DNA of 64,000 nucleotides, from contig CAJINV010000015.1 in NCBI GenBank assembly GCA_905178155.1, forward strand, positions 205,074 to 269,073. The letters are read 5' to 3'. The translations under genes and the position numbers were made by a program. How positions within the stretch are numbered: the stretch's first letter is position 1; every line of letters starts with the position of its first letter. Shown piece by piece: positions 1-57,727 of the stretch. The DNA comes from Amoebophrya sp. A120. Taxonomy: Eukaryota > Protista > Dinoflagellata. Below the pieces are notes generated by a model that was not told the DNA's origin, ran no database searches, and saw nothing but the letters and a program-made list of their open reading frames with translations.

Positions 1-3000
1 GTCCACCATAGCTTCGAATTGCCGCGTGGCGGACTGAATTTGCCCGTGAATCTATCCTGTGTAAAAACGTCCCCGCCCCAGAGTCAAAATGGCAAACCTG
101 CTACACAAATCCACCATTTTTGGCTGTTGCGCATGACAAGTCTGTTTTCGTAGTGTAATCCTGTTTAGCTACTTCAGCAGCATCACAGATCTAGCATATC
201 ATTCTGATTGGAGCATGACAAATTCCGCAACACCACTAGAAATAAATGCTTCCCATGGGGATCCGCATGAGAAACATTTTCAGCATGCAGACTAGCATGA
301 GAACTATGGGGTGGGGACGTTTTCACATAGGATAGAATTTCGGTGCCGAGCCTTACCAACGACCCCCCGACCGCCACCGCGGACAGAAATTGCGTCGCCG
401 TCGGACTGGCTCGCCGTTCTGTGGCACGGTGGTGGTCTGTTATCGTACGAAAAAAGTGTTTCACTGAAAGGATTTTGCAGGTTTTGCATGACAAGTTCGC
501 TCTACATGACAGAGAAAATGTGCCATGCAAGCTTCCTAAGAGGAGACCCAGCTAAAAATACACTTTCTTGCATGTGTAGCAAGACAAATACTTCTTCTGT
601 GTTCCATTTCATGCATCACAACTTTACAGTGAAACAGTTTTTTCTTGCGATATTTGTGGAAGACATGTCGTAGTAGGCGTTGTGTCCAACCATCCCCGCT
701 GTGGAGGTGAGAACGAAGCCGGCGGCAACCCAGTCTTGCATGGTCTGCAGGTTGTTTCGGCCCACCATGGTGCCCGCGACGGACCCGCCAAGCCCGGCGG
801 CGGCCGAGGCGCCGCCCATCACGGCAAAGATGCTCTTCTGCAGAAAGGCGGTCACCCGCTCAATCTTGTTCCCGAAAACGGCCAGGAGCTTCACAAAAAA
901 AGCATCCATCTTCGACGCAGCGAAGGCTTGCTGCCCCCGGGAAGTTGCAATTGTGCCTCGATTCAATGTAGATTGGTCACTATGGTCCTGGCCGCCCGAG
1001 CCGCGGGCGGCCTGGAGCCATATCCCACAGAAAAAAGCTGGCAGGGCATATTTGTAATGCAAAAACAAATACACACAAAAATTTGTCATGGGTGGCCCCA
1101 TAGCATGCTGCTTCCGACATGCAATACAGGTTTTTTTGTGTATTTATTTTTGCATTACAGATGTGCCCTGCCAGCTTTTTTCTGTGTGATAAGCCAATAC
1201 TCCTGCCCAAAGATTTTGCAAAACGAGGCGTCAAACGCCTTGCTGTATCAAATGTAAAAATGTCTGGGTCTGGAAGAATGCAACTTGTCATGCTACTTTT
1301 GGAATCTACATAGAATCTGTATTGCATGAACAGCAAAAGAAGTGCAGTTTGTGCCTCGCGGAGAGGAGGGTATTTCTCACACGGTATGAGCATCAGAAAG
1401 CGCTCGCAAAATCTCTGATGCTCGGGCATGCATCACAGACCTCATGGGCCATGCAAAATCTGCATGACAAACTCCAGCATTCTTCCAGACCCGGACATTT
1501 TTGCAATCCATATGCTGAGCTGCGACTCGATTTTCAGCACCGTCGGCATGATGGCCGCAGCTAGCCGTCTATCCTCAGCAAATACGTCCCCACCCCAGCG
1601 TTGTCATGCAGTTGCGCAATGACAGGATCGTTGGGAATGCGCATCTCCATGAGAGGCATTTCCAATCGTGGTGTGCCATATGTAATACTGTAAACAGGAT
1701 GAGAAATAAATGGCTTCCTCATGCGGCTTTGCTTGCTAACCAGCACTACACTGCAGATTGAAACTTGTCATGCAGAACTCAGAAAACTTGGAGATTTGTG
1801 TTGCAGATTTGCCATCTTGACGTATGGGTTGGGGACGCTTCGACACAGCATACCGTCGCTGAATCACGTCGGAGGCGACGTCGAAGGCCATGGTCTGGAA
1901 TTGCGCGCTGGCCACGGTTATCAAATGCAAATATGTCTGGGTCTGGAAGAATGGGAGTTTGTCATGCTTGTCTGGCATGACTCGAGAATCTGTGTTGCAT
2001 AGGCACGAAAAGGCCCTCTTGCCTGTCATGCAAAAACGCAGTTTGCCATGCGGAATACGTAAGACATGGCAGCCAAAAATTTTGTTATGCATAGCTGCGT
2101 ATTGCAGTACGTCTATCATTCACTTTTAGCATTCCAAGTTTCCAGACCCAGACATTTTTGCAATCCATAACGGTGTGCTGCGCCACCACGGACCCAATTG
2201 CCACCGCGCTCGAAGTGGCCGCGTAGGTGCGCGGGGCGTTGGTTGCCAGGTGGCTGGCAATCTTGTTTGCAAACCTTCCTTATCAACTGTAAAAATGTCT
2301 GGGTCTGGAAGAGTGAATGTTTGTCATGCTTCTCTGGCATGACTCTTAAATCTGTCATGCACGTTGCCCAAGAGCCGCGCTTTTCTGTCATGCGGAGACG
2401 CTGTTTGTCATGCAGAATAGGCAACATCTACAAGCTCAGAAATTTGTCATGCTGAGCCAGCACTCGTGGCCTCCTCATGCTACGCCACTCAGCATCACAA
2501 GTTTCCAGACCCAGACATTTTTGCATTTGATATTCCTACGTGATGTTTCAGCGAGTTCATCAGGTTTATCCTGAGGAAAAACGTACCCACACCAGAGTTG
2601 TAATGCAGATTTGCAAAGACAGGAAGACTTGCAATGCGCATCCGCATGAGAGCCATTTCCAATCGTGTTTTGGAATTTGTGATGCTGTGAACAGGATGAG
2701 CAGATGAATCTGTGATGCGGCTGCACTTGCTAACCTGCACTACGCTGCATAGCGCAACTTGTCATGCGTGACTCACAAAACTCCTAGGTTTGTGTTGCAA
2801 AATCCTCATCCTGACTCTGGTGTGGGTACGTTTTTACTCAGGATAAGGTTTCCGAGCAGATCACCGGACTTGTGGATGGTACCCGCTACCTATGACAGTG
2901 CACAACTCCCCCTCCTCCTCATTTGTATCGCATGAACGGCAATACAAACGAACCTAAGGGTACTAAGCAAGAATGCCGGTTTTGCATGACAAATTTGCAC

Positions 3001-6000
3001 TGGAGTGTAGTGCTAGTTGGGCAACCAGAACTTGTCATGCAAACAGTGCTAAGAGCCAATGGGTGGATTGGGTATTTTGCATGACAAATGAGAAGGGGGG
3101 GGAGTTGTGCACTGTCATACTACCATCGCGTCATCCGCCCCTTCCTGCACGTATCAAATGTAAAAGTGTCTGGGTCTGGAAGATTGCCAGGTTTGTCATG
3201 CACAATTTGCATGACTCCTGATGGCTGTGATGCATGCCCTAACATCACAGACTTTGTGAGGGCTTCCTGATGCCTATACCGCATGACAAATGCTCTTTCC
3301 GTGTAGCAAAACTTGGACTCTCTTTGCTGCTCATGCAATACAGATTTTTTCAGAATCCAAAATCAGCATGACAAGTTGGATTCTTCCAGACCCAGACACT
3401 TTTACAGTTGATAGCACGATTTCCGTTACCGCCACGGTGGCGCCTTCGGGGGCGAGGCTCATCACGGTCGGAAAATAGTCCTTCAGTTTTATCGTAAGGA
3501 AAAATCCCCCCGCCCCATATCAAAACGAAACTTCTGATGCTGGATTTGTGTACACAAATCAGATCGGTCTTTCTGGATAGCACTGCAGGCCGATACTAAG
3601 GGTAAGTAGAGAGGTTTTGGCCTAGGCACTTAGCACGATAAACGGCCGCGCTGTAGTAGGCCCAACAGCATGACAAACCGCCTGCACAATGCGGCGGAGA
3701 CTGCGGGGCTGCCTTCTTGCAAGACAGACACGATTTGTGACCACAAATCACCTTCGCAAATTTCCAAAAATATACCTTTGTAGTATAGGATTAGGAAGGG
3801 GGGATTTTTCCTTTTGATAAGTTTATCAGTCACCATGGTGGTGTACGGGCTCACGTAGGTGGTGTACGTGTCCGAAGCTTTCTGCTTGGCCTGCTCGATA
3901 TCAAATGCAAATATGTCCGGGTCTGGAAAGTTGGAACTTGTAATGCTGGTCTTGCATTCCTGTGAAATTTGTGTTGCATGACCAACAAAAGTGGCAGCCT
4001 CGCACGTGGTTGTACAAAAACGCAATTTATTCTCATGCGGAGTTCGTATGATAAAGCAGTGTGCAGCCTTGTCATGCTTTCCTGCATGAGGAACTGTTTT
4101 CATCATGCACATTTTAGCATCACAAATTTCCAGACCCAGACATATTTGCATTTGATACTCGAGACCCGCCACCGCCGTAGTCTTTACCTGGTTCATGGCT
4201 GCGTAGGGGTCGTTATCCCACGCAAAAACGTCCCCGCCCCGTAGTTGTGATGCAATTCTGCATGCCAAAAAAGTCTCTCATGCGGAGCCCATTGAGAAGC
4301 ATTTTCTATTTGTGTTTTGGAGTTATTTGCTATGCTAGAATCAGCATGCTTCTATGCTAGGTCTGTGATGCTTCTGAACTAGCTAAACAGGATTACACTA
4401 CGAGGACAAACTTGTCATGCCAAACACCCAAAGCTGGTTGATCTGTCTAGCAGATTCCCCATCTTGACTCTGTTGTGGGGACGTTTTTAATCAGGATAGT
4501 CGTCCCAGGCGTCGCGAATAGTCTGGCCCCATGTCTTGGTGGTCGCCGGAGTGGTGTATCCTGTGCAAAAGTATCGTACTCGTATAAACGCAGGTCTTGC
4601 ATTACAAATATTATTCGTAAGGTAAATCAGCATGACAAATTTTATTTCTCATGCTGAGAAAATTTGTCATGTATTTATTTTTATACGAGTAGGAGTACGA
4701 TACTTTTGCAATGCATATGGTGGTCTTGTCGCCCATTCCCGCGGAAGACTCCAGCGAGTGCTCTATCGAAAGGAAAAATCCGCCCTCCCCATATCGAAAA
4801 GATATGTCTCCGACGATTTGCGTTGCTGATTTGAGGCCACAAATCGCGTCTGTCTTGCAAGAAGACAAGGGCAAAAGCTTCGCCCCCATTATGGAGGCGA
4901 TTTGTCATGCTGCTGGGCCTAAAGGGGAGCCGTTTGCCATGCTGAACAACTAGACCGATACGCCCCTACCTAGCCTGGGGATGTGGCCGCAGTGCCATCC
5001 TGCAATACAAACCTGATTTGTGTACACAAATCCCGCATCACAGATTTCCATTTCGATATAGGGAGGGGGGATTTTTCCTTTCGATATGCTCAAACCCGCG
5101 TATCCCCGTCTGCCAAATGTTCTGAAACAGGCCGCGATGCGCTACGTTTTGGCGCCAGGTGGTCCATTCCTCCTTGAGGTGGCCGAATTTCATGTATGAC
5201 AGTGAACAACTCCACCGCCTCGCCCTCATTTGTCATGCAAAATCCCAAATCTAACTATCTTCTGCCTGTTAGAAGCACCTTGTGCATGACAACTTCCGAA
5301 GTAGGCCAAAACAGCACTACAATCCTCTCAGGAATTTGTCATGCAAAAGCGGCATGTTTTTGTTTGCCAGCGCTTGCGTTGCTGTTCACGCAACGCGAAT
5401 GAGGGGGAGGGGGAGTTGTGCACTCTCATATCATGGTCGTTGGGTCGCGGTGGTACCGCATGGCGTTCATCTGCAGCATTGACACGCCTTTCTTCAGCCC
5501 GTAAACGTGCCACCCCTGGAAGGTGTGCGAGGTCCACATGCGGTAGAGCACCATGCTGTCTGACATCGCCTCAGCCACGAACCGCGCGCTCAGCAACTTG
5601 GGACAGATCGCGACGGCCGCAAAGGTGTCCAGCGCGACGATACCCGCGACCAGCGCGAAGTTCACGATCGGGAAGATGGGTTTTTCGCCGATTTTCAGCA
5701 AAAATTCAATGCCCCGCCGCTCAAATTCAGAGAGGACAAAATTGTACTGCTCGAGCTGGTATCAACTGCAAACACGTAGTCTGGGTCTGGAAAGTTGTGA
5801 TGCATGTCAGTGAATAGAAAACACACTGTAATTATGCACCGCCAAGCATGACATATTACATGGCTGTAAAGCACGACACCGTAATGGCTCCGCGTTGCGT
5901 ATTCCGCATGACAAGCAGATTTTTTGCATGACAGACAAGAGCAGCTGTTGCTACCCACGCAATACAGAGCTCCGTGTCATGCCAGACTACCTAGCATGAC

Positions 6001-9000
6001 AAATCTGGCACTCTTGAAGACCCAGACATATTTGCATTTGATAGTTGGTTCTGGTGGTGTTCCTGGAGCAATTGGCCCGAGGAGTTTATTTTTCCACTCG
6101 TAGATTTCCGTCGGTTTTGCAGCCGCTGCTGCTTTTGCCGCTTCGCATCCTGGTCGAAGCTCATTTTTCCCTCGCTCTCCAAACGCGCGGCCTCCGCACG
6201 GGCGGAGTTGTGGCTCGAGGTCTCTGCTTGCCCGGCCCCAGCGAAATTCAGCTGTGTGGCCTTGGAGTTGAGCTGCCAACGCTGCCGCAACGTGGTCAGG
6301 CCGTCCGGCTGCAGCTGCAGTGGCTCCTCGCGCAGCGCGCCCTGGTACGTGGTATGCATTGCAAATATGTTTGGGTCTGGAAATTTGTGATGCTGGGTGG
6401 CGTATCGTGAGGAGGCCGCAAGTGCTGGCTCAGCATGACAAGTTTATTCCGAGCTTCTAGGTGTTGCCTATTCTGCATGACAAACTGCGTTTCTGCATGA
6501 CAGAAAAGTGGGGCTCTTGTTGGGTAACGTGCATGACAGATTTAAGAGTCATGTCAGACAAGCATGACAAGCATGCACTCTTCCAGACCCAGACATATTT
6601 GCACCCTGGTACGTGGCGACCTTGTACAAGGACCGACTCTATCCTGTGCAAAAGTATCGTACTCGTACTAATTGCAAATATGCATGACAAATTTTTTTCC
6701 TAAGGCAAAGCAGCATTACAAACTCCGCTTTCCTTCTTGCCAAAATTTGTAATGCAATTCATACTAGTACGATACTTTTGCAATGCATAGACTCCAGCTC
6801 CCGTCGTCGTCCCCGAAGAGCATGAGCATCTTGCGCATGCTGTCTTCGGTCAGGTCGGTGAACAGAATGGTCATACTGTCCGCGCCCTTATCCGCCTGGT
6901 AGCGGAGGTACTTGATAAACTCCTGCGCACTGTTGCGCATCTTGTACAGGTACTCGTTCCATTTGCTATGAATGTTGTGCAGTTCCTCCTCCAGGTAAAC
7001 CGCTCGCACGGACTTTTTCTCCACTTCGCCACCACCTTCGTTTGTGACCCGCAGGCCTCCCTTCTGTTGCACTTCCTCCATACCCGTGCGGAGTTGGGTG
7101 AGATGAAAATGAATGTGCAGGAGGGGCGTCTCCAGGTCGTTTTTCAACTTCTCCAGCGCTCTGTCATCTTCTTCTTCATCCCTTTTCGTCTCGATCATCA
7201 GCGCCTGTGCGATGAGTTGGTGATCGTCATTGTACTGCGCAATCGATTTATCCGCAATGCTGTACTTGGAGTGCCCAAACATATCGTGGTCGGGCAGCAG
7301 CTTGTCATTGTGCATCAAAACCATAGTCGTAATTTTTTCGGCGTCGTTCAGGTGTCCTCGCTGCTGCGCACTTGCCATCGCGGCTTCCTCGTTTTGGTTT
7401 GCGGAGTTCCTACCGTCCTCGTTTTCATCCAAATCAGAGTCGTTCGCAGCGTCGGAGTCCTCATCTTCCGGAGACCCTGCAACAGCCCGGCCTGTACCTC
7501 GGCGGCCAAATGGAGTGCCTGTCGTCGTGCCAGCATATTGGTGTGCCAGTCCGCCGGAGGCATAATCCACCTCCATCGCATCAGGGTTCAGTTGCTGACC
7601 ACTTCCAGCTGCTCCATATGCAACCGCCAAACCCTGGCTTCGCTCTCTCTGCCGTCGATTGCAGGCTTGACGGAAGGAATCCGCGGCCCGCTCGCCCAGC
7701 GTCTCCGCGTGATTGATGCACGTGCGCGCGACATTTTCGAAACCCACACTCTGGCTGGTGTAGGTGCAGCGCAAATTCGCGTTGCGGCGGGAGGCGAGGG
7801 TTCGGCGACACAATTCTTCGTCATCACTGCTGGCGCATGAACTCTCAACTGCGAGTTCGCTGGCTGGGCCGGAGGCCGTGCTGCCGTCGGAATCTTCATC
7901 ACAATCGCTACCCTGAACAGGTGGGTTGTTCTTATCCGATTCTTTCTGTTGCAAACCCCCCCGCGGGCTCGTCGATCCAGCTTTTGCAGGCGTAGTTGCA
8001 CCCGCCTCACCCGGTTGCAGGTCCATCCCAAAGCTTGGCGGCTTCGTCCCCACCTCGTGAGCGCTATTCGCCGGTGTCTGGGCTTCCTTTGTGTCCGTGA
8101 ACTCGCCCGCTTTTGGTGTGTTGGCTTTTCTTTGCTTTGCTTCCTCGTCCGCGGCTTTCTGCTGGGCTTCCTTTTCCTGCGCTTCCTTTCGGGCCTCCTC
8201 TTCCTTTTTCGCTATTTCATACTCGTGGGTCTGCTTGCTTTTATTCGCAGTTGCAAAGTTTTTGTACTTCTCCATCCGTTTTTGTCGGAGTTCGTGTATT
8301 TTCTTAATGGTCTCGTCGTAGGACTTGAGGTGTATCAAATGTAAAAATGTCTGGGCCTGGAAGATTGCCAGGCTTGTCATGCACGTTTTGCATGACTCCT
8401 GATGTCTGTGATGCATGCCCTAGCATCACAGATTTTGTGAGGGCTTCCTGCTGATGCCTATACTGCATGACAAATGCTCTTTCCGTGTAGCAAAACTTGG
8501 ACTCTCTTTGCCGCTCATGCAATACAGATTTTTCTAGAATCCAAAATCAGCATGACAAGTTGGATTCTTCCAGACCCAGACACTTTTACGGTTGATAAGG
8601 TGCTTTGCGAGCTCGGTCCAGTCGCTGCTGAACCGCTGCTTCTGGCCCGCCTTAGGATTTTCTGCACTCGGGGGAGGATCGTAATGCGTGACCACGAGTT
8701 TCTGTACCTCTGCGTCCTGCTTATACCACGGAAACTTCTTGGTAATGACCAGGTCTGCCAATTTGCTGATGTTGGGCTCGTATGAACTGCCAAAGTATAA
8801 TCGCACTCGTAGTAATTGCAGTCATGCATTAAATTTCTCTTAAGGTAAATCCGCATTACAAAATTTCTTTCTCATGCTAAGCAAACTAGTGATGCAATTA
8901 TTATATGCGAGTGCGATACTTTTGGTTTTGCAATGCATAGCTCGATCACGTCGTTGAACGTTTTCATCGAGTCGAGTCCGTTGATATCAAATGTAAAAAT

Positions 9001-48000: not shown

Positions 48001-51000
48001 GGGTCATGGAAAATCTGCATGACAAGTCTATACTCTTCCAGACCCAGACATTTTTGCTCTTGATACCGTCAGCTCGTCGTAGATGCCCTTTAGATTTTCG
48101 TTGGATCGAAACACGTATCAAGTGCAAAAGTGTCTAGGTCTGCAAAGTTTGAACCTGTATTGCGTGTTTCGCATTCCTAAAAAATCTGTGTTGCATACAT
48201 AAGCAGCAAATAAAGCACCACACTTTCGTCTTGCAAAAACGAAGTATGTAATGCGTCCTGCGTATGACAGAGCGGTTCAAAGTAAGATTTGTCACGCTGC
48301 ACTGCAGTTAGAGGCGCAGTCAGTCATTGCCATTCAGCATTACAAGTTTCCAGACCCAGACATTTTTGCATCTGATAACACGTAGTTATTGACCGCCTGC
48401 TTCAAATCGTTATTCTGCAGTACCTGGCCGGAGACAATGCGGAACCGCTTGCGTTGCTCCCGGCTTGGTGCTTCTACTTCATCCGTCGGGACGTCGAGCA
48501 GAACCTTCGAGACTTTCCTAGCCGCGTCTTGCGCCAGTTTTTGGTAATGCTCAACCGTTATGAAATGCAAAAATGTCTGGGTCTGGAAGATTCTGAGACT
48601 TGTCATGCACGTTTTGCATGGGCCATGATGTCTGTGATGCATGCCCTAGCATCACAGATTTTTTGAGAGCTTCGCGATGCCTATTCCGCATGACAAATGC
48701 CCTCTCCGCGTAGCCAAAATTGCATTCCCTTTGCTGCTTATGCAATACAGGTTTTTTTGGAATCCAGATGCAGCATCACAAGTTCGGATTCTTCCCAACC
48801 AAGACATTTTTACTTTTCATAACCGTATTTCTCTTCTCAACCGACGCGAGCGAGCCGGCTTTTTCCAACAAAGATTCGCACTTCTTCGGGTCGAAAAGTT
48901 CCGGATTCTTTTCGTCTTTTAGAGTCTTCGATGTTCTTCCAGTTGTACTAGCGGTCTTCTTGTTCACAAAGGAACTAGCCTGTTGGCCGCGAAGCAGTTG
49001 TTGTTCCGCATTTTGCAAGAGCTGCAGATACGCCTCCTCACTGTTTTCTCTCCCTTCCTTCGCCTTCAGCGCTTTGAGATCCCTACTAACCAAGTACGAG
49101 GCCGTAGACTCGTAGTTAAGCCTATTGCAGTGAAAAATGCCCCTATGCCCAAAATTGCAAAAATTTGTGATGCGAAGTATCCAAAAGAAAACTTTTTGTC
49201 ATGCATGAAAGGAGTATGAATCTTTCTGATGCAGAGTCTAGGCGTGTATCGCATCGCTTGCATGACAAGCGTCGCTCTTGCTGGGGTCTTTTACATTGTA
49301 GATTTTTGGTATTCACGACTGGAAACCTGTGAGGCTGATAGATGCAAGAGGGCGAGTGTTTCATTCGGAAAGGTTTGCAATACAAAAGCTCCCAAGTTCG
49401 GGGGTGGGGGCATTTTTCGTTGTAATAGAGGCAAAGGTTCGGAAGCCCAGCGAAACTCACGTCCGTGAAGGGCAAGGATCGCTTTAATGCGGCGAATTTC
49501 TCCACGCCACCGGTTTCCTGACTCGGTGTCAATAGCGGTTCAGTGGTCACGGTCGTACAGAGGTCGGCACTGGTGAGCTTCTGGGAAGGGTCGTTGAAGG
49601 TGGATAAGTATTCCAGAGCGTAGGCGGCAGTTGCGTCTTGTTGTGCAGCTTCAGCTGCATTTTCGGAAATGGTTTTGGAGGACGGCAATAGATTCACGTT
49701 CAAATTCTCATTCGTTTTCTCCAAAAATTCCTTCGGCTCCTGCACCCGAATCGCCGCTAGCGCCGGTTGCCGGATCGCATCAAAAGCGGTCTTTTTCAAC
49801 TCATCCACAAGCTCGTATGCCTGGCTTTCCAAAAGCTCGGGGCTGATCTCGCTCGAGGCTGCGTCTAGTCCCTCGTGGGAGCCGTAGGAAGTGTAAGAAC
49901 TACCTGGGCCGGAAGATGAATAATTGTGGCCCAGTACTTCCTCCTCACTCTCGCCCAAATCGAGAACTTTTGCAAAAACGTTCTCGATCTGCCATAGTTG
50001 CGCCGTTGACTTTGCACGGCCGTCCGCAGCCGCAACGAGGAGGTCCTCTTGCGAGGAAGATTCATCTGTGGGTCGTTCGTCCACTGTGAGAGGCTGAGAG
50101 AGAGCAGTACTTTGTTTCTGAATTTCGACAATAGCTTTGTCCGTCTCGGTGCGGAGTTGCGCTAGCTTTTCCAAATGAAACACCTTCTCTGCGTTCTTCG
50201 TCAGCGTCGAAGCAGGCACATGCCTAGAAGATGTCGATCCGGGGGAATGACCTTCTGCACTCGTCTCCAAGAACTTTACTTTACAGAGTTGCTGTGGGAG
50301 AATTTCATCGGTCAAAATGAAACTCCTGGCGATCTCGTGGTAGTGCGCGTCAATCCGATCCCACTTCTCCACAGCCTCCGTCCATGCATCGGCTTCGAAA
50401 TGAAACGCTGCGGGGGTGAAGGAGTCCGGGCCAGTTTGCTGCCCGAAAAGCACTTGCTCCTGCACTTTCTGTTCTCTTGCCCGCAGCCGCTTCAAGGCGG
50501 AGAGCACGTCCTCGTACACAAATCGCCCAAGTTTGGCCACAATGGCTTTTGCGTCGTCAAAAGTGACTTTCGCAGGAGCAGCTGGATCATCCGGTCCTCC
50601 CTGACCCGCACGAAAAATGCCGACGCTCGAGTCTCTGATGCTGACTGCCCAAGTAACAAAAAATGCGAAGACGACGCGCTTGGAGATAAAGGGCGGGGGG
50701 CTGTTTGGATTCACTGTCTCAGGTGCAATCGTGTTCTTCAGGAATTCCGCAAGTTCCTCCGTTGTTACCATCATCGCCCCCCGCTGCCGCTTCGTACTAG
50801 CCGTTTGGCTAGTAGAAGGCGCAGCACCTCCTCCTTCTTGCTGTGCGCCCGACATCGCGCCAACATCGGTAGTTCCTGTATCGGTCTCGCCTTGAATGGA
50901 CGTCTCTCGCGACGGTGGCGCGCTCATTTCCAAGTTGAGGAAAGCATGGACATTCTTTTCTCGAGCGGAGGTCAACAGCTCTGCAAGTATTCTTGCCTTT

Positions 51001-54000
51001 CCCGCGTAGCTCTCGTCCAAGGGTTGGCCCGAGAAGATTTCTTCCCTGGTACGTCCGAAGAGAGCTTGAGGTCCCATGACGACGGTGAAAGCATTCTTTA
51101 CAACGTCGTCTGTGCTAGTGCTTGACATCTCGCCAAGTTTTTCGTACGCCTTTTCGTACATGCTTGCCAGGTCCCGAAACAGAGAGTCAGCCCAAGCGAT
51201 CTCTTGTTGCAAGCCCAGCATTTTCTGCACAGCCACCTCGTGCGCAGCTTGGCCAACGATAGCCTCTACGCTGGTGCCCAGGTCCCGCGCCTGCTCATAC
51301 TGTCTCTTGCGTTCGTGCAACGCGCCGCCGAGCCTTTTCAATATCGGCGACAGCTTCGGGATCGGGTTCTCCACGTCGCGCAAGTTGTTCTGTTGGGTGT
51401 CGCGCTGCACCAGGCTACTTTCGGTAAAAGTACACCTGCTATCGATTTTCGCCACTGCCGCGTGCATGATCTTCTTGTCTTCATACGCAGCAGCTGCACC
51501 TCCGGCACGAAACTGCAAGTTGTCTCGTGCTGCCATCACTCCGCCAGCTTGATCTTTTTTTTTCGACGCGGCAGGCAACACCACCACTTTATCACCGACA
51601 TTGAAGTGCGTGAACTGCATTTCGGTGGCGATTACATCAACTGCAGCGTGGAGTTTCAAGACACTTGCCATCGCATTGTCGAAGAGACTTTCGTTTTCAC
51701 GAGGATCATCCTGCTGGTGCTGCCCTCCATCCTCGGCATTTATTGTCGTCACAGACTCCAACTTTTTAAGCGCCTCTTCGCACTCTTGCTCGGCGTTCTG
51801 TGCGGAGATTTGCAGCAGCTTAAACTTCTCGAGTTGTTCCTTCTTCTGCTGAGTCTCCAGATCTTGGTCGACATCGGAGTGATACAACCCGGCACTACTA
51901 GAAGCCCCCGTCAGTTCTACAGTTCCTTCCAGCGCGATCTTGTCGCCCTTAATCTGCAACATGCGTTTTTGCTCTTCCAGCGAGTCCACCGCATCTACAA
52001 TTGTCGCCGGCAGCGACAGCTGGCTCTCCGAAGAGTGCATCTTCGCGTAAATCGACGCGACAGGGAAGTAGTAGGAAGTACTAGTAGTTCCCGCTCCCGG
52101 CACAGCTTTGTCGTGAGCATGTTTTGTATTTCCCATAGCGAACAACTTCTGGTAGACGAGCTTCAAGATGTTCAGCACTAGTTGCGATGGGACTGTGCGA
52201 ATTCCGCTGTTGCTCGTCTCCCCGTTGCGAAGAAACCCGTTGCCGCCTCCGAAAATCGAAGAGGCTTTACTTGTCCCGAAGTGAAAGCGTTCCACTTCCT
52301 TCCGAACTTGGCGCGCGAACAGCTGATCTTCGTGGGAGACGAGTTGCCCCTGCGGGAGATAGTCCTCTTCGTCCTCGTCGGAAGAAGAGGAGAGCAACTC
52401 TCGGAGGTCGAGATCTCTATCAGAGGAGTGAGATCTACCATGCGGAAGCGGGTGCATGACACCGTGGTAAGCGGGGCTCGAACGACCACCGGAGTTCTGG
52501 CTCTTTGGATTGTCTGCCTCGACGTCGTGCGCAAGAAGGTGGTTGTGTCCTCCAGGCCTTTTGTTCAACTGCTTTGCCATTTGCAACGCGGATGCGAAGC
52601 CTAAATGGTCACTGCGACTGGCCAAAGCCTCGGCGAACCGGAGCAAAGCTTTCATATCCTCTTCTTGTTGGACAACTTGGACGCTGTCGGAGGTGCTGGG
52701 TGTCCCGGAGGAAGGTTGGTGATTCTCCGCGACCGCCTTTTCCGAGAACCGCATTCGCTCTTCGGCGGACAATCGGATTCGTCGTACAATCTCCTTCTCT
52801 CCCGGAGAAAGAACGCCATTCTTGCTCATGTTTTCAAAGCCGTACCACGGTAGGAAGTACCACTCGGCTTCCGTGATTTCGCTTTTCTTTTTCACGAGGG
52901 CTCGGTGAAACCGCGGCGTGTTCGTTTTGGCGTCGAACGTTTTCACAATGTATCTTTTCGTCTCGCGTGGTCCACCTTCCGCCCAGTCCTGCAGGTCCTT
53001 GCTCGTGAAACTTTCCAACGAGCGCACTTTGACGTCCTGCATCATCGACGGGAGCTTCTTTACAACTTCCTCCTTCAGCTGCGCCAATTCCCCAAAAGCC
53101 TTGTATTCCGGTACGGTAAACGTGTAGCCACGACTCTCTAGCGGCGCCAGGGACCACGAGCGCGCCATTGGCGAGGGAGAAAACCTGGTACAATCGATGA
53201 CATAGAGCAGCGCCAGGTAGCGCTTCACGGAGTCACTGAGCAGGTCGTCTAGCTTTGTTATAGCTGTGTCAGGATCATCTGGGTCCCCGCAACTCTCATC
53301 GACCGCAAGTGCCCAGAGCTGCGTCTCGAAAGTGTCCCACACCTGTGCACGGTGCTTCCGTACGCGCGCTAGCTCCTTTTCCGGCGAGTAGCGTTTCGGA
53401 GTGAAGGACGCTCCGTGGGCCCCAGAATAACGATACTCCACGAAAACGTGCTTGAGGCGCGCCAGGAATGCCGCGAGCCTGTTCTTCGCGCTCGCGACTC
53501 GCGCGAGATCTTTTGATCCATTAGCTTCGGCAACAACATGCAGCATCTCCCTGACACGCGGTCGAAGTGTTTGGAAGAATGTAGAATCTGCATCCCTGTT
53601 GTACTCGAGTTTGTAGTCTGTCTTTTGCGTGTGTTTGTTCGTGTGTTCAGTAAACTTTATGAATCCGTAAGGATCCACAATGCTCTCTACGTCACCGAGC
53701 TTCCTCCACTCCTGGGCATCGTCGTCCTCAAACACGGCCTTATGGACGGCCCCCCAGTACATTCGCTGGACAGAGGAATACCAGTTGAGCCCGTGCTCCG
53801 GTCTCAGCACAATTTGCGGAACCGCGGCGGCAGAAAACGAAGCTGCTTGTTGTTGTCCTTGCGGTGAGAGAGCAAGAACTTCCTCAACTCCCGCCAGTGC
53901 GTGTAGCGCGGACGTGCCATCCTCCTGGCCCGCAGTCGGAAGCAGCGCCAAGAAATACTGGTCGTTCTTTTGCTGGCTCTGCTGCCCACCGCTGTTGCCG

Positions 54001-55943
54001 TTTTTCATCTCTGCCCGCGAGGAAATTTCCTCTCTGTAGACGTTCAGCACCGCCTCCGCCCGTTCCGGGAAGGAGAAGGAGACCGCGGTTGGGGACGATG
54101 TGAACAACGAAGCATCTTCGGATGAAAGTTTCGTCGTGTCCGGCCGGGCGCGGCCCTCCTCCTCTTCTGCAGGTAGCTGCTGCAATAGCACGTAAAACGC
54201 CCGCAGGAGCTATCAAAATGAAAAAAGCCCCCACCCCATATCAAATGGGAAATCTGTGATGCAGGATTTGTGTACACAAATGCGCGCTGTCTTGCGCCGC
54301 GGCATCGCAACCAGATCCGCAGCCTACGGAGGGACACTTGGGTGTAGGTGCTTAGCATTGCAAACGGCTGTCCTCTAGGCCCAACAGCATGCCAAACCGC
54401 TTCCAGAATGGCGCGGAAGCCTCTGCGTTTGTCTTCTTGCAAGACAGACGTGATTTGTGGTCTCAAATCAGCAAGACAAATTTTCGAAAGCATGCCTTTT
54501 TGATATGGGGAGGGGGGATTTTTCCTCTCAATAGGAGCCGCTTCTCATTCGCCTGGTAGGTGGAGAAATCGTATGAACTGCAAAAGTATCGATCGTACTC
54601 GTATAAATGCATGACAAATTCCCTCGGCATGAGAAATAAAATTTGTAGTGCGGATTTACCTTGAGAAAAAAATTTGTAATGCATGATTGCAATACGAGTA
54701 CGATACTTTTGCACAGGATAAATCGACGAAATGGCGGGGTACATTTGTTCCGTCTCTGACTTCTTCTTTCCGATTGATTTTGATCCCATACTTCTCCAAT
54801 ATTTTGGTTTGATAGGTGCCGCGTTTAACATTTCTCGCCCCGTCGCGCACCAAAATCGTCCTTCGGTCGTAGAAGTTAAAGGGAAGCAAGGCCAGATTCA
54901 TCTGCTGTGGCTCCGTGACGCTGCTCTCCAGCCAGCATCGCGACTCGTCAAGAACTACCTGCGGCTTGCAGAAGACGCCGAGTTTGGTAGGAGTCCGATC
55001 GTTTATTTCTGCGGGGACGGATGCTGCGTCAGAAGCAGGAGATGCAGCAGGAACCAGTTGTCTCGAGAGGACCAGCGGATTCAGGGTTTTGCGAACAACA
55101 GAGTCAGCCCTTTGTTTATATTTTTCAACCAAGCTGCTGTGTGAAATGCTCTCGTCGTCGTGTGGCAGGAGCTTCTTATCCCCCATAAAAATCCCAATGT
55201 CTGCCGTATAGAGCGTCGCAACGATCTCAGCTTCGACTTTTCCTCCGCCGTTGAACTGCTTCAAATAATCGAAATAGTCCCGCAACTCGTCTACCGTCGG
55301 AGCTGGCCGCGCCGGAGCGAAAGTGCCCAAGTTTTGTCGTGCCTGAGCCACAGCAGCATTCAGCGTGGCGCCGGAAGCCGCGTTTTCGGTTTTCTGGATA
55401 ATTTTGTCCTCCACAAGGAGGAGTTTGTAGTTTTCGTAGTTTTTGAAATCTGGGCTGGATAGGAGCTTTTGCCAGAAATAATAGCCCTCGGAACTACGAC
55501 CCGAGCCCTCGGGACTACGAACGTCCTGTCCTTGACCTTGCGGGGACCTGGAAGAAGTTTCAATTTCCCGCACCAAGAAATAATACACCTGTTCCCGGAG
55601 AACTTCGTCGGTCAGCTGAGAAAGATCGCGAATCTTGACTCCAGCTTGACTCGGCGTCGTCGAGCTGCTGTGGTCTCTGGCAGCACTTCCGACAATGTTT
55701 TTGTTTTTCAAAAAGTATTCCACCCAAGCGCCGTTTTCCGTCAGCATCCTTTTCACTTTCCCCGGGGCGAAATCATTCAGCTGCTTCGCCAGGATCTTAA
55801 ACAATCCAGCTTGCTGCGGGAAGAGAAGTGCGGACTCGCTGTTAATCCGGGTTTTGTCAACCATCACATCGCGAACAATCACCTTCATCTCCCGTTCACA
55901 CCTCACCTCTACCAACGGATTTCTCTCGTTTTTGCCACCGGGA
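1..55943 (-). CDS. Giant multi-exon gene, partial at both ends: about 10,500 aa, with a SecA-like DEAD/helicase ATPase module, TPR-like repeat, coiled coils and Gly/Ala-rich hydrophobic segments
   Basis: The long minus-strand ORFs (e.g. 54656-55951, 49143-54191, 46415-47752, 28681-30057, 25776-26903, 20761-22005, 16417-17844, 6764-8416) join in one frame when each element plus one 5-bp DR and the GT-AG intron are removed. Frame followed by hand across every junction; about 31.56 kb of exon. Confidence 0.9.
53..334. mobile_element. Introner-like TIR element, family A (AAAAACGTCCCC)
   Basis: TIR; DR gaatc/gaatt; removal keeps frame. Confidence 0.9.
441..652. mobile_element. Introner-like TIR element, family B (AAAAAASTGT)
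   Basis: TIR; DR tctgt/tttgt. Confidence 0.9.
1021..1191. mobile_element. Introner-like TIR element, family C (CACAGAAAAAAGC)
   Basis: TIR; DR agcca. Confidence 0.9.
1246..1512. mobile_element. Introner-like TIR element, family D (TGTCTGGGTCTGGAA)
   Basis: TIR; DR tgctg. Confidence 0.9.
1570..1852. mobile_element. Introner-like element, family A
   Basis: TIR; DR ccgtc. Confidence 0.9.
1919..2169. mobile_element. Introner-like element, family D
   Basis: TIR; DR acggt. Confidence 0.9.
2281..2532. mobile_element. Introner-like element, family D
   Basis: TIR; DR ttcct. Confidence 0.9.
2567..2845. mobile_element. Introner-like element, family A
   Basis: TIR; DR aggtt. Confidence 0.9.
2891..3119. 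mobile_element. Introner-like element, family H (TATGACAGTGCACAACTCCCC)
   Basis: TIR; DR ctacc. Confidence 0.9.
3152..3413. mobile_element. Introner-like element, family D
   Basis: TIR; DR gcacg. Confidence 0.9.
3490..3819. mobile_element. Introner-like element, family E (AAAAATCCCCC..CCCCATAT)
   Basis: TIR; DR agttt. Confidence 0.9.
3899..4157. mobile_element. Introner-like element, family D
   Basis: TIR; DR ctcga. Confidence 0.9.
4214..4498. mobile_element. Introner-like element, family A
   Basis: TIR; DR gtcgt. Confidence 0.9.
4557..4717. mobile_element. Introner-like element, family F (AAAAGTATCGTAC)
   Basis: TIR; DR tggtg. Confidence 0.9.
4764..5086. mobile_element. Introner-like element, family E
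   Basis: TIR; DR tgctc. Confidence 0.9.
5195..5430. mobile_element. Introner-like element, family H
   Basis: TIR; DR tcatg. Confidence 0.9.
5760..6043. mobile_element. Introner-like element, family D
   Basis: TIR; DR gctgg/gttgg. Confidence 0.88.
6353..6611. mobile_element. Introner-like element, family D (right end GTA)
   Basis: TIR; DR cgtgg. Confidence 0.88.
6640..6789. mobile_element. Introner-like element, family F
   Basis: TIR; DR gactc. Confidence 0.9.
6790..8332 (-). CDS. Large exon of the giant gene (charged/coiled-coil, low complexity)
   Basis: Core of ORF 6764-8416 between two elements; frame continuous. Confidence 0.85.
8333..8597. mobile_element. Introner-like element, family D
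   Basis: TIR; DR aggtg. Confidence 0.9.
8781..8939. mobile_element. Introner-like element, family F
   Basis: TIR; DR gctcg. Confidence 0.88.
8985..9246. mobile_element. Introner-like element, family D
   Basis: TIR; DR gttga. Confidence 0.9.
9386..9662. mobile_element. Introner-like element, family D
   Basis: TIR; DR agtgg/agtgc. Confidence 0.88.
9715..9976. mobile_element. Introner-like element, family D
   Basis: TIR; DR tcccg. Confidence 0.9.
10144..10405. mobile_element. Introner-like element, family D
   Basis: TIR; DR agttg. Confidence 0.9.
10460..10614. mobile_element. Introner-like element, family F
   Basis: TIR; DR tttgc. Confidence 0.9.
10795..11116. mobile_element. Introner-like element, family E
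   Basis: TIR; DR ggcat. Confidence 0.9.
11169..11434. mobile_element. Introner-like element, family D
   Basis: TIR; DR ccttg/tcttg. Confidence 0.88.
11551..11946. mobile_element. Atypical singleton introner-like element containing a telomere-like palindrome
   Basis: TAT...ATA ends, inner IR AATATMATGTCC, DR aggaa; removal keeps frame. Confidence 0.82.
12308..12629. mobile_element. Introner-like element, family E (right end ACA)
   Basis: TIR; DR ctctg. Confidence 0.88.
13345..13600. mobile_element. Introner-like element, family D
   Basis: TIR; DR agttg. Confidence 0.9.
13947..14208. mobile_element. Introner-like element, family D
   Basis: TIR; DR gcgca. Confidence 0.9.
14295..14551. mobile_element. 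Introner-like element, family D
   Basis: TIR; DR acttc/actcc. Confidence 0.88.
14692..14945. mobile_element. Introner-like element, family D
   Basis: TIR; DR gagtt. Confidence 0.9.
15016..15279. mobile_element. Introner-like element, family D (left end TGT)
   Basis: TIR; DR gcctg. Confidence 0.88.
15332..15540. mobile_element. Introner-like element, family B
   Basis: TIR; DR gatgc. Confidence 0.9.
15909..16237. mobile_element. Introner-like element, family-D ends with divergent interior
   Basis: Degenerate TIR; DR cgtgc. Confidence 0.85.
16315..16464. mobile_element. Introner-like element, family F (left end CAT)
   Basis: TIR; DR ttgtg/ttgcg. Confidence 0.87.
16465..17896 (-). CDS. Large exon of the giant gene (coiled-coil)
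   Basis: Core of ORF 16417-17844; frame continuous. Confidence 0.85.
17897..18202. mobile_element. Introner-like element, family G (AAAAATGCCCCCACCCC)
   Basis: TIR; DR gaaag. Confidence 0.9.
18248..18509. mobile_element. Introner-like element, family D
   Basis: TIR; DR cgtca; near reverse complement of 3152-3413. Confidence 0.9.
18559..18820. mobile_element. Introner-like element, family D
   Basis: TIR; DR tgctg. Confidence 0.9.
19015..19225. mobile_element. Introner-like element, family B
   Basis: TIR; DR ggtcc/gatcc. Confidence 0.88.
19370..19524. mobile_element. Introner-like element, family F
   Basis: TIR; DR attag/attcg. Confidence 0.88.
19927..20237. mobile_element. Introner-like element, family E
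   Basis: TIR; DR agacg. Confidence 0.9.
20615..20893. mobile_element. Introner-like element, family A
   Basis: TIR; DR atggt. Confidence 0.9.
20894..22028 (-). CDS. Large exon of the giant gene
   Basis: Core of ORF 20761-22005; frame continuous. Confidence 0.85.
22029..22307. mobile_element. Introner-like element, family A
   Basis: TIR; DR gcggt. Confidence 0.9.
22575..22749. mobile_element. Introner-like element, family C
   Basis: TIR; DR tgccg. Confidence 0.9.
23412..23583. mobile_element. Introner-like element, family F
   Basis: TIR; DR tcggc/tcgtc. Confidence 0.88.
23641..23886. mobile_element. Introner-like element, family B
   Basis: TIR; DR aaatt/aaatg. Confidence 0.87.
23979..24245. 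mobile_element. Introner-like element, family D
   Basis: TIR; DR ttctc. Confidence 0.9.
24314..24565. mobile_element. Introner-like element, family D
   Basis: TIR; DR gcttc. Confidence 0.9.
24947..25115. mobile_element. Introner-like element, family F
   Basis: TIR; DR cgcaa. Confidence 0.9.
25597..25804. mobile_element. Introner-like element, family B
   Basis: TIR; DR tcagc. Confidence 0.9.
25805..26902 (-). CDS. Large exon of the giant gene with a TPR-like segment
   Basis: Core of ORF 25776-26903; MRHFESAIHLDATFAGPAYFGQAW resembles a TPR repeat. Confidence 0.82.
26903..27212. mobile_element. Introner-like element, family E
   Basis: TIR; DR tttca. Confidence 0.9.
27274..27526. mobile_element. 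Introner-like element, family D
   Basis: TIR; DR gcacc. Confidence 0.9.
27756..28034. mobile_element. Introner-like element, family A
   Basis: TIR; DR atacc. Confidence 0.9.
28309..28587. mobile_element. Introner-like element, family A
   Basis: TIR; DR gtacc. Confidence 0.9.
28637..28892. mobile_element. Introner-like element, family D
   Basis: TIR; DR tggtg. Confidence 0.9.
28893..30011 (-). CDS. Exon with SecA motif VI and the start of a Gly/Ala-rich hydrophobic region
   Basis: Core of ORF 28681-30057. Confidence 0.85.
30012..30164. mobile_element. Introner-like element, family F; splits the GGL/HV motif
   Basis: TIR; DR caaac. Confidence 0.92.
30229..30493. mobile_element. Introner-like element, family D; splits the ST/NLAGRGTD motif
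   Basis: TIR; DR ttgtg. Confidence 0.92.
31235..31486. mobile_element. Introner-like element, family D
   Basis: TIR; DR gtacg. Confidence 0.9.
31842..32013 (-). other. Canonical GT-AG spliceosomal intron, 172 bp
   Basis: Minus strand gattt|GTAGTAC...GTTATAG|gattgtg; no TIR; removal gives in-frame PPDLIVHVLDK. Confidence 0.75.
32677..32944. mobile_element. Introner-like element, family D
   Basis: TIR; DR tcgcg. Confidence 0.9.
32997..33285. mobile_element. Introner-like element, family A
   Basis: TIR; DR agcaa. Confidence 0.9.
33809..34020. mobile_element. Singleton introner-like element (AAAAAAGTTYGTCGC ends)
   Basis: TIR; DR catgt/tatgt; removal keeps frame. Confidence 0.85.
34322..34597. 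mobile_element. Introner-like element, family A
   Basis: TIR; DR aatgc. Confidence 0.9.
34854..35139. mobile_element. Introner-like element, family A
   Basis: TIR; DR tcggc. Confidence 0.9.
35278..35436. mobile_element. Introner-like element, family F
   Basis: TIR; DR tcacg. Confidence 0.9.
35542..35821. mobile_element. Introner-like element, family A
   Basis: TIR; DR atagc. Confidence 0.9.
36332..36597. mobile_element. Introner-like element, family D
   Basis: TIR; DR tcacc. Confidence 0.9.
37050..37333. mobile_element. Introner-like element, family A
   Basis: TIR; DR atttt. Confidence 0.9.
37386..37691. mobile_element. Introner-like element, family G
   Basis: TIR; DR caggc. Confidence 0.9.
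38077..39266. mobile_element. Introner-like element, family E, expanded by a nested insertion
   Basis: TIR; DR acaca; removal keeps frame. Confidence 0.88.
38312..39170. mobile_element. Nested non-autonomous DNA transposon (MITE-like)
   Basis: ~36-bp perfect TIR TTAGGGCGGAAAAATCGGCAAATAGCATCATTTTTG; 5-bp TSD cagtg; host family-E sequence resumes after it. Confidence 0.85.
39314..39576. mobile_element. Introner-like element, family D
   Basis: TIR; DR tgtta. Confidence 0.9.
40278..40541. mobile_element. Introner-like element, family D (left end GAT)
   Basis: TIR; DR tccac. Confidence 0.87.
41029..41292. mobile_element. Introner-like element, family D
   Basis: TIR; DR cgggg. Confidence 0.9.
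41575..41784. mobile_element. Introner-like element, family B
   Basis: TIR; DR cagga. Confidence 0.9.
41842..42103. mobile_element. Introner-like element, family D
   Basis: TIR; DR gacca. Confidence 0.9.
42917..43208. mobile_element. Introner-like element, family A
   Basis: TIR; DR gcacc. Confidence 0.9.
43277..43538. mobile_element. Introner-like element, family D
   Basis: TIR; DR cgtgt. Confidence 0.9.
43962..44170. mobile_element. Introner-like element, family B
   Basis: TIR; DR cttcc. Confidence 0.9.
44221..44429. mobile_element. Introner-like element, family B
   Basis: TIR; DR cgcaa/cgcag. Confidence 0.88.
44681..45289. mobile_element. Singleton foldback-type introner with long (~180 bp) imperfect inverted arms
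   Basis: TATGGCGATGTCAA...TTGACATCGCCATA ends; inner 29-bp perfect IR 44832-44860/45113-45141; DR cgggc; removal gives LVSPVGAVTT. Confidence 0.88.
46180..46419. mobile_element. Introner-like element, family H
   Basis: TIR; DR cgtgg. Confidence 0.88.
46420..47804 (-). CDS. Large exon of the giant gene
   Basis: Core of ORF 46415-47752; frame continuous. Confidence 0.85.
47805..48065. mobile_element. Introner-like element, family D
   Basis: TIR; DR ccgtc. Confidence 0.9.
48116..48377. mobile_element. Introner-like element, family D
   Basis: TIR; DR acacg. Confidence 0.9.
48559..48821. mobile_element. Introner-like element, family D
   Basis: TIR; DR accgt. Confidence 0.9.
49123..49427. mobile_element. 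Introner-like element, family G (reverse orientation to 17897 and 37386)
   Basis: TIR; degenerate DR aagcc/gaggc; removal of element+5 bp keeps frame. Confidence 0.85.
49428..54210 (-). CDS. Largest exon of the giant gene (4.8 kb, element-free)
   Basis: Core of ORF 49143-54191; in frame with both neighbouring exons. Confidence 0.88.
54211..54533. mobile_element. Introner-like element, family E
   Basis: TIR; DR ggagc. Confidence 0.9.
54572..54720. mobile_element. Introner-like element, family F
   Basis: TIR; DR aatcg. Confidence 0.9.
54721..55943 (-). CDS. Most 5' exon of the giant gene visible in the window
   Basis: Core of ORF 54656-55951; joins ...FVDFSTYQANEKRLLRAFYVLLQQ... Confidence 0.85.
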
Positions 55944-56396
55944 TATCCCACAGAAAAAAGCTAGAAGCGGGGCAGATTTGTAAAGTGCAAAAAAAGCCTT
56001 GGAGTTCTTTCCCCGACGGCATGCTAATTTCTCGCCACTCCGGTCCGGGGTGTCCGGCAAGTGGCGAGAAATTGCTGTGCCGTCGGGAAGACACCAAAAT
56101 CCCGAAGCAATGCCTTCTGCAACAACACAAGCCCTGATTTTGTTTTTCCGACGGTAGGCTAATTTCTCGCCACTCCGGTCCGGGGTGTCCGGCAAGTGGC
56201 GAGAAATTGCTGTGCCGTCGGGAAAACACCAAAATCCCGAAGCACCGCTTTCTGCAACAACACAAGCCCTGACATTGTTTTCCCGACGGTAGGCTAATTT
56301 CTCGCCACTCCGGTCCGGGGTGTCCGGCAAGTGGCGAGAAATTGCCGTGCCGTCGGGAAAACACCAAAATCCCGAAGCAATGCTTTCTGCAACAAC
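55944..56396. mobile_element. Left part of a family-C-like element, interrupted by the copia insertion; other end outside the window
   Basis: Starts TATCCCACAGAAAAAAGC like 1021 and 22575; left flank cggga. Confidence 0.78.
55994..56396. repeat. Tandem array of three 135-bp units, each with a ~75-nt hairpin
   Basis: AATTTCTCGCCACT at 56026, 56161, 56296; arms CCGACGG..AATTTCTCGCCACT / AGTGGCGAGAAATT..CCGTCGG. Confidence 0.92.
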
Positions 56397-56713
56397 TAGG
56401 AGTACAGGCGTAATAGTATACGAACAATCTTGATACGAATCAGGTACAGCCGCTATAGGCAAAGAAGTACTTTATGGTTGCTCAAATGACCGGTCACTGT
56501 GGTCATCGGTTTCTCATGGTGTTCGTGGTTCGTCGTAAAGCGTCTCCATTCCATTCACGGTCTAAATTCCAATCGTTCCAATTTCCAATCATCGTTTTTC
56601 CATCGTGATTTCATCCTGATTCTATTTTGGTTTTCATATGGAATTTTGTACCGATGTGCCTGATGATCGTGTTGATTCGTTATACTATTTAGATCTCGAG
56701 TGGTAGATCGACA
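56397..56713 (-). repeat. 3' LTR (part verifiable against the other copy; extends further right, inner end undetermined)
   Basis: Direct repeat of 63684-64000; I see 2 mismatches in 317 bp. Confidence 0.92.
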
Positions 56714-57727
56714 TCCACACCACCCAAGAAAAAAGAGAAAAATATACGAAGCATGTAAAGAAGGGTCTATATCATGCGAAGTAGATTCTATGCAAAACGA
56801 ATCAACACTAGTGACGTGCACTTTTAAGTTTCAAAATATTTGCGCTAGTATTTTGAATGTTTGTAAACCGGTCCTGTAGAGTGTAAATTGTGTTAAATTT
56901 CTATAAAAATGAAAGCTAAACCGCCTTACCTCGTCAACATACCGTCGCGAAGGGCTTCGTGACGTGCTCTTGACGCCAATGGGCGTCGAAATGAATAAAA
57001 GTAAAGCTTTTGCAAGTAAAAGTAGTGCTTTTTCTTGCATTGTAGTGCTGATTTGCTACAACTGTCAGGCGTGTCTAGGGTGTCACAGCCTTGCAGTTCG
57101 CTTGTCACGACTAAAATGCTTGGGAAAGGCTTGAAAATCATACAAGGAATTCTTGAAATAGCATGAGAAATCATACATCATAATCTTACATCATTCGGAA
57201 TTTGTCATGCTGTTTCTAAGTAAAAAAAAGTTAAAAATAATTACCGTCCACCCAAAATATCCTTTTTCTCTTTCACCGTAAATCCCATCTAAAATCCAAA
57301 CTGTAAATAAAATCCGTAATCCGTTTCCTCCTCTTTTCCATGCGGTTTCGCGGTTTGATATAAAACCCGTTTTCGTACTCCCATCGGTTTTCGAAGGTTA
57401 AATCGATGGTCTGTAGTGCTGTTTTCTGTGTTTTCGCCTGATTTTGTTCGGAAATCTTTCCAAATCTTACAAATCAGCCTAAAACTCGGCATCTTTAGTT
57501 GTAGTTTTTAGTTCTATTCCCACTGGGATCGTCAACATACTGTCACGAAGCTCTTCGTGACGTGATTGTGACGATGCAAGCCTGTGAAGAATCAAAAAGC
57601 AAAAATATGTCTTCAAGATTTCTAATATAAATCATACATGTACAGCCTGCGAAGACATGTTTTTCTTTTTGTAAAACAATAACGAAAGTTCGTCCGTGCC
57701 GACTAGATATCACTCACAAAACTCGCA

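Follow-up and report, generated by a model that had tools for sequence, protein, structure and literature searches.

The DNA analyzed here (the window) comprises 64,000 nt of Amoebophrya sp. A120 and corresponds to positions 205,074-269,073 of the forward strand of contig CAJINV010000015.1 (GCA_905178155.1). It contains most of one giant minus-strand coding sequence, interrupted by 90 elements that carry terminal inverted repeats (TIRs) and are flanked by 5-bp direct repeats. Very probably, these inserts are A120 introner elements that are precisely removed at the RNA level. The first Met lies at 55,888 and the frame is open at the left window edge, past which the A120 gene model P0020 contributes 267 further aa, for a predicted protein of about 10,730 aa. 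The codon-position GC pattern is uniform along the coding sequence in 500-codon windows; none of these shows the aberrant codon GC of a hidden in-frame canonical intron, short introns being below that resolution.

1-55,960, minus strand: giant coding sequence in 91 in-window exon pieces; 10,487 codons remain once the 90 elements are removed

An automated scan searched for inverted repeats of the form TAT...ATA flanked by a 5-bp repeat. It yielded 88 candidates, five of which were discarded as overlapping alternatives. With the remaining 83, seven gaps kept stops in all three frames, and one weaker element was added by hand in each, for a total of 90. The same scan finds 0 matches in 8/8 block-shuffled control windows and 0 matches between 56 and 64 kb of the window. 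The final elements are 149-1190 bp each, sum to 24,049 bp and have a GC content of 44% (exons, 55%). This agrees with the initial annotation, made from the sequence alone, which described ninety TIR elements of about 24 kb in one coding sequence. That annotation counted 89 complete elements and one incomplete one; in our set both ends are present in 90/90, with the weakest TIR in 11551-11946.

The flanking repeats are exact for 75/90 elements, with one mismatch in 13 and two in 2, and exact duplications of 4, 6, 7, 8, or 9 bp occur in 0/90. The 15 elements with mismatched repeats start at 53, 441, 5760, 9386, 11169, 14295, 16315, 19015, 19370, 23412, 23641, 31780, 33809, 44221, and 49123. As initially noted, the repeat sequence varies between sites (81 different sequences among the 90 elements) and the element lengths take all three values modulo 3 (31/33/26). 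Both termini follow the logo TAT-N7-AAA(AA), with TAT at 175/180 ends and A at TIR positions 11-13 in 79-89/90 per end. TIR positions 4-10 occur in few variants, which combine freely at the two termini of an element and are shared among families. Nine of 91 terminal 11-mers are found in more than one family, as if elements exchange ends.

By similarity, the elements form eight families that account for 83/90, close to the earlier tally (A 14, B 8, C 3, D 37, E 8, F 11, G 3, H 3, and three singletons). Copies within a family are 65-95% identical, and orientations are balanced in the two biggest families (6 and 8 per orientation in the 14-copy family).

36-copy family, 251-284 bp, span 1246-48821, 17 and 19 per orientation: starts at 1246, 1919, 2281, 3152, 3899, 5760, 6353, 8333, 8985, 9386, 9715, 10144, 11169, 13345, 13947, 14295, 14692, 15016, 18248, 18559, 23979, 24314, 27274, 28637, 30229, 31235, 32677, 36332, 39314, 40278, 41029, 41842, 43277, 47805, 48116, 48559
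14-copy family, 276-292 bp, span 53-43208: starts at 53, 1570, 2567, 4214, 20615, 22029, 27756, 28309, 32997, 34322, 34854, 35542, 37050, 42917
11-copy family, 149-172 bp, span 4557-54720: starts at 4557, 6640, 8781, 10460, 16315, 19370, 23412, 24947, 30012, 35278, 54572
8-copy family, 310-330 bp with one of 1190 bp, span 3490-54533: starts at 3490, 4764, 10795, 12308, 19927, 26903, 38077, 54211
6-copy family, 208-212 bp, span 441-44429: starts at 441, 15332, 19015, 25597, 43962, 44221
3-copy family, 229-240 bp: starts at 2891, 5195, 46180
3-copy family, 305-306 bp: starts at 17897, 37386, 49123
2-copy family, 171-175 bp: starts at 1021, 22575 (joint span of this and the two 3-copy families, 1021-49427)
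Seven elements outside the clusters at the threshold used: 11551-11946, 15909-16237, 23641-23886, 31780-32060, 33809-34020, 41575-41784, 44681-45289
38312-39170, inside 38077-39266: nested element of 859 bp with TTA...TAA ends, a 20/20 TIR and its own 5-bp repeat

Element 38077-39266 owes its 1190-bp length to the nested element; removal of the latter with 5 bp leaves a 326-bp family member, 86% identical to 4764-5086. The TTA-purine-purine ends of the nested element, which sits only inside an intron, resemble the A25-type introner motif.

Removal of the elements and their identity

Removal of each element together with 5 bp (element+5) leaves a minus-strand frame in which none of the six sliding registers contains a stop, matching the single open reading frame of about 10,500 codons that had been anticipated. 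Removing the element plus a number of bases that is not 2 modulo 3 produces >200 stops in every frame and, if retained, 89/90 elements would break the frame, the sole exception being 3899-4157. Element+2 and element+8 removal, however, give 0-3 stops in registers inside the repeats. The earlier claim that element+5 keeps the frame thus holds, but frame fixes the rule only modulo 3, and it is the protein models that decide between +5, +2, and +8.

5572-7324, minus strand: A120 model P0013 (GSA120T00021943001, CAD7968353.1), 349/349 aa identical to the +5 product, 3 junctions
1-5479, minus strand: in-window part of A120 model P0020, 439/439 aa identical to the +5 product, 16 junctions

Against these two models, the +2 and +8 products show a gap at every junction (3 and 16). 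Alignment to the A120 paralogue P0002 likewise scores 449 bits for +5 versus 435 and 427 for +2 and +8. The A120 gene models were built by a transcript-alignment pipeline designed for non-canonical introns, and they therefore provide indirect transcript evidence at 19/90 junctions. Precise, footprint-free removal, as first proposed, is supported at 19/19 of them. Frame and gene models together support loss of the element with one repeat copy, which would restore the pre-insertion sequence.

The window elements are non-canonical, with variable splice dinucleotides and no common terminal pair, and they lack the GT/GC...AG ends of U2-type introns. A perfect in-frame GT..AG is available in 8/90 elements in the +2 register and in 6/90 in a +5 register, whereas 84/90 have none in any +5 register; the initial annotation likewise saw no shared GT..AG register. 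Frame-keeping GT..AG pairs within 12 nt are found for 34/90. Elements 1570 and 2891 offer GT..AG at +2, yet both are modeled as +5; in one of the two, a +5 register contains GT-AG as well. Element 44681-45289 had been thought to reach a stop at its nearest GT..AG; in fact this element+2 reading is in frame and stop-free, and it inserts a single Pro. Splicing of element+2 as N-TAT...ATA-N was rejected, as that register contains 2 stops and the A120 gene models disagree with it.

The logo TAT-N7-AAA, together with the A120 proteins that the window encodes, identifies the inserts as A120 introner elements, as the initial annotation had suspected for Amoebophrya. The class is already known, in A120 itself, and 19/90 elements are already removed in public gene models. 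Farhat et al. 2021 (PMC7789003) describes the A120 inverted repeat as a TAT triplet, seven less-conserved nt and three conserved As, reports 3-5-nt direct repeats of variable position at exon/intron borders (5-bp repeats in the Fig. S19 legend), and gives RNA-seq support for the class and 29,850 introner copies. Gozashti et al. 2025 (PMC12130899) reports tens of introners in single A120 genes, as well as TIR elements with frames resembling long terminal repeat (LTR) integrases. The window elements share with these published introners (PMC7789003, PMC12130899) the TAT-N7-AAA ends, the 5-bp repeats, a length of about 240-260 nt and the many copies per gene. They differ only in degree, with 90 in one gene of ~10,700 aa, and one uniform 5-bp rule fits all 90, whereas the published repeats are 3-5 nt and variable in position. 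Other Amoebophrya strains use GT-AG (PMC12005148), and PMC9860276 names Amoebophrya only in its references.

Similar introns are described in other lineages. The nonconventional introns of euglenids (PMC11282704, PMC12501133) also have a TIR stem that joins their ends, repeats like target-site duplications (TSDs), non-GT-AG borders and spacer-set cuts. They differ in their CAG/CTG stem motif with set spacers, in place of which the window ends read TAT-N7-AAA, in a purine preference at the exon start and in lineage; excised circular RNA is shown there. The introners of Micromonas, Aureococcus, Symbiodinium, and Polarella (PMC11282704; bioRxiv 10.1101/2020.10.14.339549) are likewise non-autonomous TIR elements with a TSD, one copy of which is removed, and a phase bias. 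In those introners, G[TCA] and AG are supplied by the TSD or by the element itself, whereas here 84/90 are without GT-AG in any footprint-free register and the TSD sequence is free. Finally, the introns of Fritillaria borealis (PMC11282704) are derived from miniature inverted-repeat transposable elements (MITEs) and have TIRs, TSDs, and non-canonical ends, but they have AG-A(N) ends in common and favor a particular target, while the window elements have no common terminal dinucleotides.

Relatives, spread, and spacing

Metagenome contigs were scanned with the TIR pattern, giving at least 163 stretches, of which 158 loci (480,723 bp) were analyzed. Among the matches listed for these loci, 84/90 window elements have relatives at 71-96% identity; no orthologue of the giant gene and no copy of the nested element 38312-39170 appear there. 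Loci of at least 1.5 kb provided 215 unique elements among the matches listed; the 78 with a confident frame were used and 137 were left out. Repeats of these 78 are exact in 68, with one mismatch in 7 and two in 3. The longest TIR pairs with an exact repeat, among the matches listed for the 158 loci, are 632 and 834 bp, their coding content not having been looked at. The TIR pattern has 0 matches in viral contigs.

By their sequence features, the window elements qualify as MITE-like: they have TIRs, a TSD of constant length and variable sequence, both orientations and lineage-specific sites. Protein P0014, a match of 79% across 44 aa, begins with residues that derive from an element, whereas the corresponding window site has no insert; this fits lineage-specific insertion. 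A 9-mer, GCAWSACAR, occurs 260 times in 81/90 elements, on both strands equally and mostly in subterminal positions, with 0 occurrences in 32 kb of exon; it is a putative transposase-binding repeat.

Neighboring elements show a preferred distance of 40-53 nt. Of the 89 internal exons, 22 are 38-56 nt long and none is <23 nt. Simulations with local density, for this bin chosen after seeing the data, place 4-6 exons in the peak and 6-10 below the minimum, and the peak was reached in 0/3000 runs in each of four settings. The metagenome relatives have 54/170 gaps of 40-79 nt and none <21, as raw observed counts. A minimum exon size together with targeting beside existing elements may account for this pattern. 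Along the gene the elements become denser: the coding sequence contains 3 in its first fifth and 36 in its last (window 40,000-55,960 compared with 1-7,000).

Mechanism of removal

Several observations bear on the position of the cut. The repeats of element 441-652 differ at base 4 and the P0020 model keeps the upstream base; at this single informative site the 5' cut therefore lies at TAT or one base before it. The nine commonest A120 junction pairs in Table S4 of PMC7789003 all begin NT, and these pairs are found in 36/168 elements in the one-base-before-TAT register versus 0, 7, 5, 17, and 0 in the others. In 42/90 window elements and 43/78 metagenome relatives, the first repeat base is at codon position 3 (pooled 85/44/39, P 1e-5). 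In the one-base-before-TAT register, 85/168 introns would fall between codons, against 36-40% predicted from target base composition (P about 0.003). A palindromic target preference was rejected as the full cause of this phase bias, as it predicts 36-39% and 51% is observed. Roy et al. (bioRxiv 10.1101/2020.10.14.339549) explains introner phase bias by recruited splice sites; none are evident in the window elements. Individual positions of the repeat show no base preference (P 0.09-0.79 for the window and 0.05-0.89 for the metagenome relatives).

Repeat mismatches concentrate at third codon positions (11/17 in the window and 10/13 in the metagenome relatives; 35% expected), and the junction sequence is therefore under coding selection. 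In the pooled set, 21/30 are at third positions and 15/30 are synonymous, and zero constraint is rejected (P 9e-5); the synonymous share mostly does not reject one free repeat copy (P 0.02-0.33). The terminal TAT/ATA is changed at 5/540 positions, where decay at the rate of the repeats would give 10-20 changes (P 0.058 to 5e-5, depending on the assumption). The ends are thus better kept than the repeats predict and likely matter after insertion. Two elements were folded, with predicted z values of -7.9 and -8.4. The U-tract found near every 3' end is no more than a mirror image of the A-tract at the 5' end.

We propose that the elements, which are short and non-coding, spread as non-autonomous DNA transposons through a DDE-type transposase or integrase that would bind the TAT-N7-AAA ends and the internal 9-mer. 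In the transcript, the two element ends would pair, as the predicted folds suggest. The 5' cut would fall one base before TAT (N-UAU) and the 3' cut, placed by distance, 4 bases after ATA, such that exactly one repeat copy would leave with the element and restore the pre-insertion sequence. The +2 U and +3 A of N-UAU resemble a spliceosomal donor, and this arrangement may also fit A25 TTA ends. The introner elements are likely, though only just, to be cut from pre-mRNA by a modified U1-less spliceosome that measures from the paired ends rather than from GT/AG. Two points favor it: A120 has the rest of the spliceosome, and the +2 U/+3 A are donor-like. Somewhat more than half of our confidence in the elements' identity and RNA-level removal would go to spliceosomal catalysis as such. 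PMC7789003 lists U2, U4, U5, and U6 and 83/89 spliceosomal proteins as present in A120, and U1 as not found.

A number of results weigh against this explanation. At 71/90 junctions, removal is supported by frame alone, and the cut register rests on one site plus a published table possibly shaped by aligner conventions. A fixed cut does not account for the 21/30 mismatches at third positions, more than predicted even when one repeat copy is free (expected 0.39-0.48, P 0.0007-0.013). There is no sign of sense-strand selection for RNA pairing (74 G-U versus 65 A-C mismatches), the sense fold is lower in only 45/89 elements, and TIR positions 4-10 are often unpaired (33-66/80 paired). Nor was a strand-specific 3' signal seen in the tract and arm comparisons; an asymmetry between the 5' and 3' arms (11 versus 2 in the window) was reversed to 4 versus 10 in the metagenome relatives and was rejected for this failure to replicate. 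Farhat et al. also found no A120 transposase and argue that the mechanism should differ from ordinary splicing (PMC7789003).

A bolder possibility is that A120 splices without regard to the sequence at either cut. In that case every TAT...ATA stem flanked by a 5-bp repeat would be removed footprint-free in either orientation. The step involved would be non-spliceosomal or a microhomology-guided sliding one, coding selection would act on both copies of the repeat, and the insertion of new elements would be steered to about 45 nt from existing ones. We consider this doubtful, if worth keeping in view. Much the same, or marginally less, can be said for a spliceosome-independent nuclease and ligase, of the kind proposed for euglenids, that would recognize the terminal stem at its base. 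Such enzymes would explain why GT/AG is unneeded even where available and why the two orientations are equally used without a strand-specific signal, and they would suit the missing U1. Euglenid TIR introns leave as circles (PMC11282704) and obey stem-plus-spacer rules (PMC12501133). Against these enzymes stand the presence of the rest of the spliceosome (PMC7789003) and the treatment of Fritillaria TIR introns under spliceosome evolution (PMC11282704). The between-codon bias and the resemblance at +2 U/+3 A also fit a spliceosomal donor.

In a sliding scheme, microhomology realignment would skip the element, either as a polymerase jump over the hairpin or by repeat-guided ligation, and both repeat copies would reach mRNA. 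The 21/30 third-position mismatches fit two constrained copies (expected 0.57-0.79 at omega 0.1-0.3) better than one free copy, and sliding accommodates the full strand symmetry. The count is only 30, however, and the synonymous share gives no clear rejection of one free copy; 15/90 elements tolerate mismatched repeats and one gene model shows a definite register, leaving sliding improbable. Still less credible is programmed DNA excision in the nuclei that express the gene, of the kind that removes internal eliminated sequences in ciliates. It agrees with the DNA-transposon anatomy and the strand symmetry, but the assembly retains all 90 elements, relatives carry the same families at other sites and the class is defined from RNA-to-genome alignments. 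Amoebophrya is also not known to have a separate somatic nucleus.

Ordinary GT-AG splicing, at nearby cryptic sites or as element+2, is largely refuted and very improbable; the GT..AG pairs in the +2 register (8/90), in a +5 register (6/90) or within 12 nt (34/90) speak for it, and the 2 stops at +2, the +5 models of 1570 and 2891 and the 84/90 elements without GT-AG in any +5 register speak against it. A last reading is that the gene is dead and its spliced forms are reverse-transcriptase jumps across hairpins. A hairpin with a direct repeat is the typical anatomy of such artefacts, and the main text of PMC7789003, as searched, mentions neither RT-PCR nor lariat nor direct-RNA tests. The absence of any stop from 31.5 kb of exon alongside family copies that are 65-95% identical, the third-position bias at junctions and the 89/90 elements that would break the frame make this the least credible explanation of all.

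The encoded protein, flanking features, and significance

29,892-36,079, minus strand: SecA-like DEAD ATPase region, aa about 4362-5499, PF01043 (E 2.7e-6)

The A120 paralogues of this region, P0001 and P0002, carry PF07517/PF01043. Compared with both paralogue models, the SecA-like domain of the giant gene has an insertion of ~320 aa (window 33,500-35,400, minus strand), which is itself interrupted by elements. Of 20 frames tested against Pfam, 16 matched no family, and Rfam gave 0 matches in the window. The exon 16468-17895, used as query, found no homologue among proteins of 834-2380 aa, and the middle of the gene is therefore without a gene model here. The match to P0015 (C-type lectin repeat) was dismissed as spurious.

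A Copia-like LTR retrotransposon lies upstream of the gene (window 56,400-64,000, minus strand), with zinc knuckle and RVT_2 matches. Its LTR copies are 99.4% identical over 317 bp, and its two overlapping frames switch near 59.6-59.8 kb. It contains no TAT elements, which is consistent with a recent arrival. Between its protease-like and integrase-like regions, at about 61,480-61,530 on the minus strand, is a 2A/StopGo-like motif, D-V-E-K-N-P-G-P; the 2A consensus, as given in a literature listing, is D(V/I)ExNPG-P. Three tandem 135-bp units (91-92% alike, with an internal palindrome and no Rfam match) occupy 55,990-56,400, between the retrotransposon and the gene start.

Our literature search, with subscription papers, figures, and the PMC12130899 datasets outside its scope, returned no paper that resolves the A120 introner removal machinery or reports the spacing peak. 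Apparently unreported are the uniform +5 rule that ignores available GT-AG and the placement of the 5' cut, from one informative site, at TAT or one base ahead of it. The same appears to hold, in the literature searched, for the spacing peak, the shared 9-mer, the phase bias, the third-position repeat mismatches and the lack of a strand-specific signal.

The gene, of ~10,700 codons, is publicly annotated in fragments only. The locus offers a test bed for the removal mechanism, with 90 natural variants on one transcript. Among these are 15 mismatched repeats that would reveal the cut in reads, 5 damaged terminal triplets, 8 elements with competing GT-AG, and one nested element. If a U1-less spliceosome is indeed at work, the locus would show how far structure can replace splice-site recognition. 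If the catalyst is not the spliceosome, this would be a new RNA-processing route. Were removal free of any sequence requirement, A120 would pair a transposon family with a universal intron-removal machine of its own.

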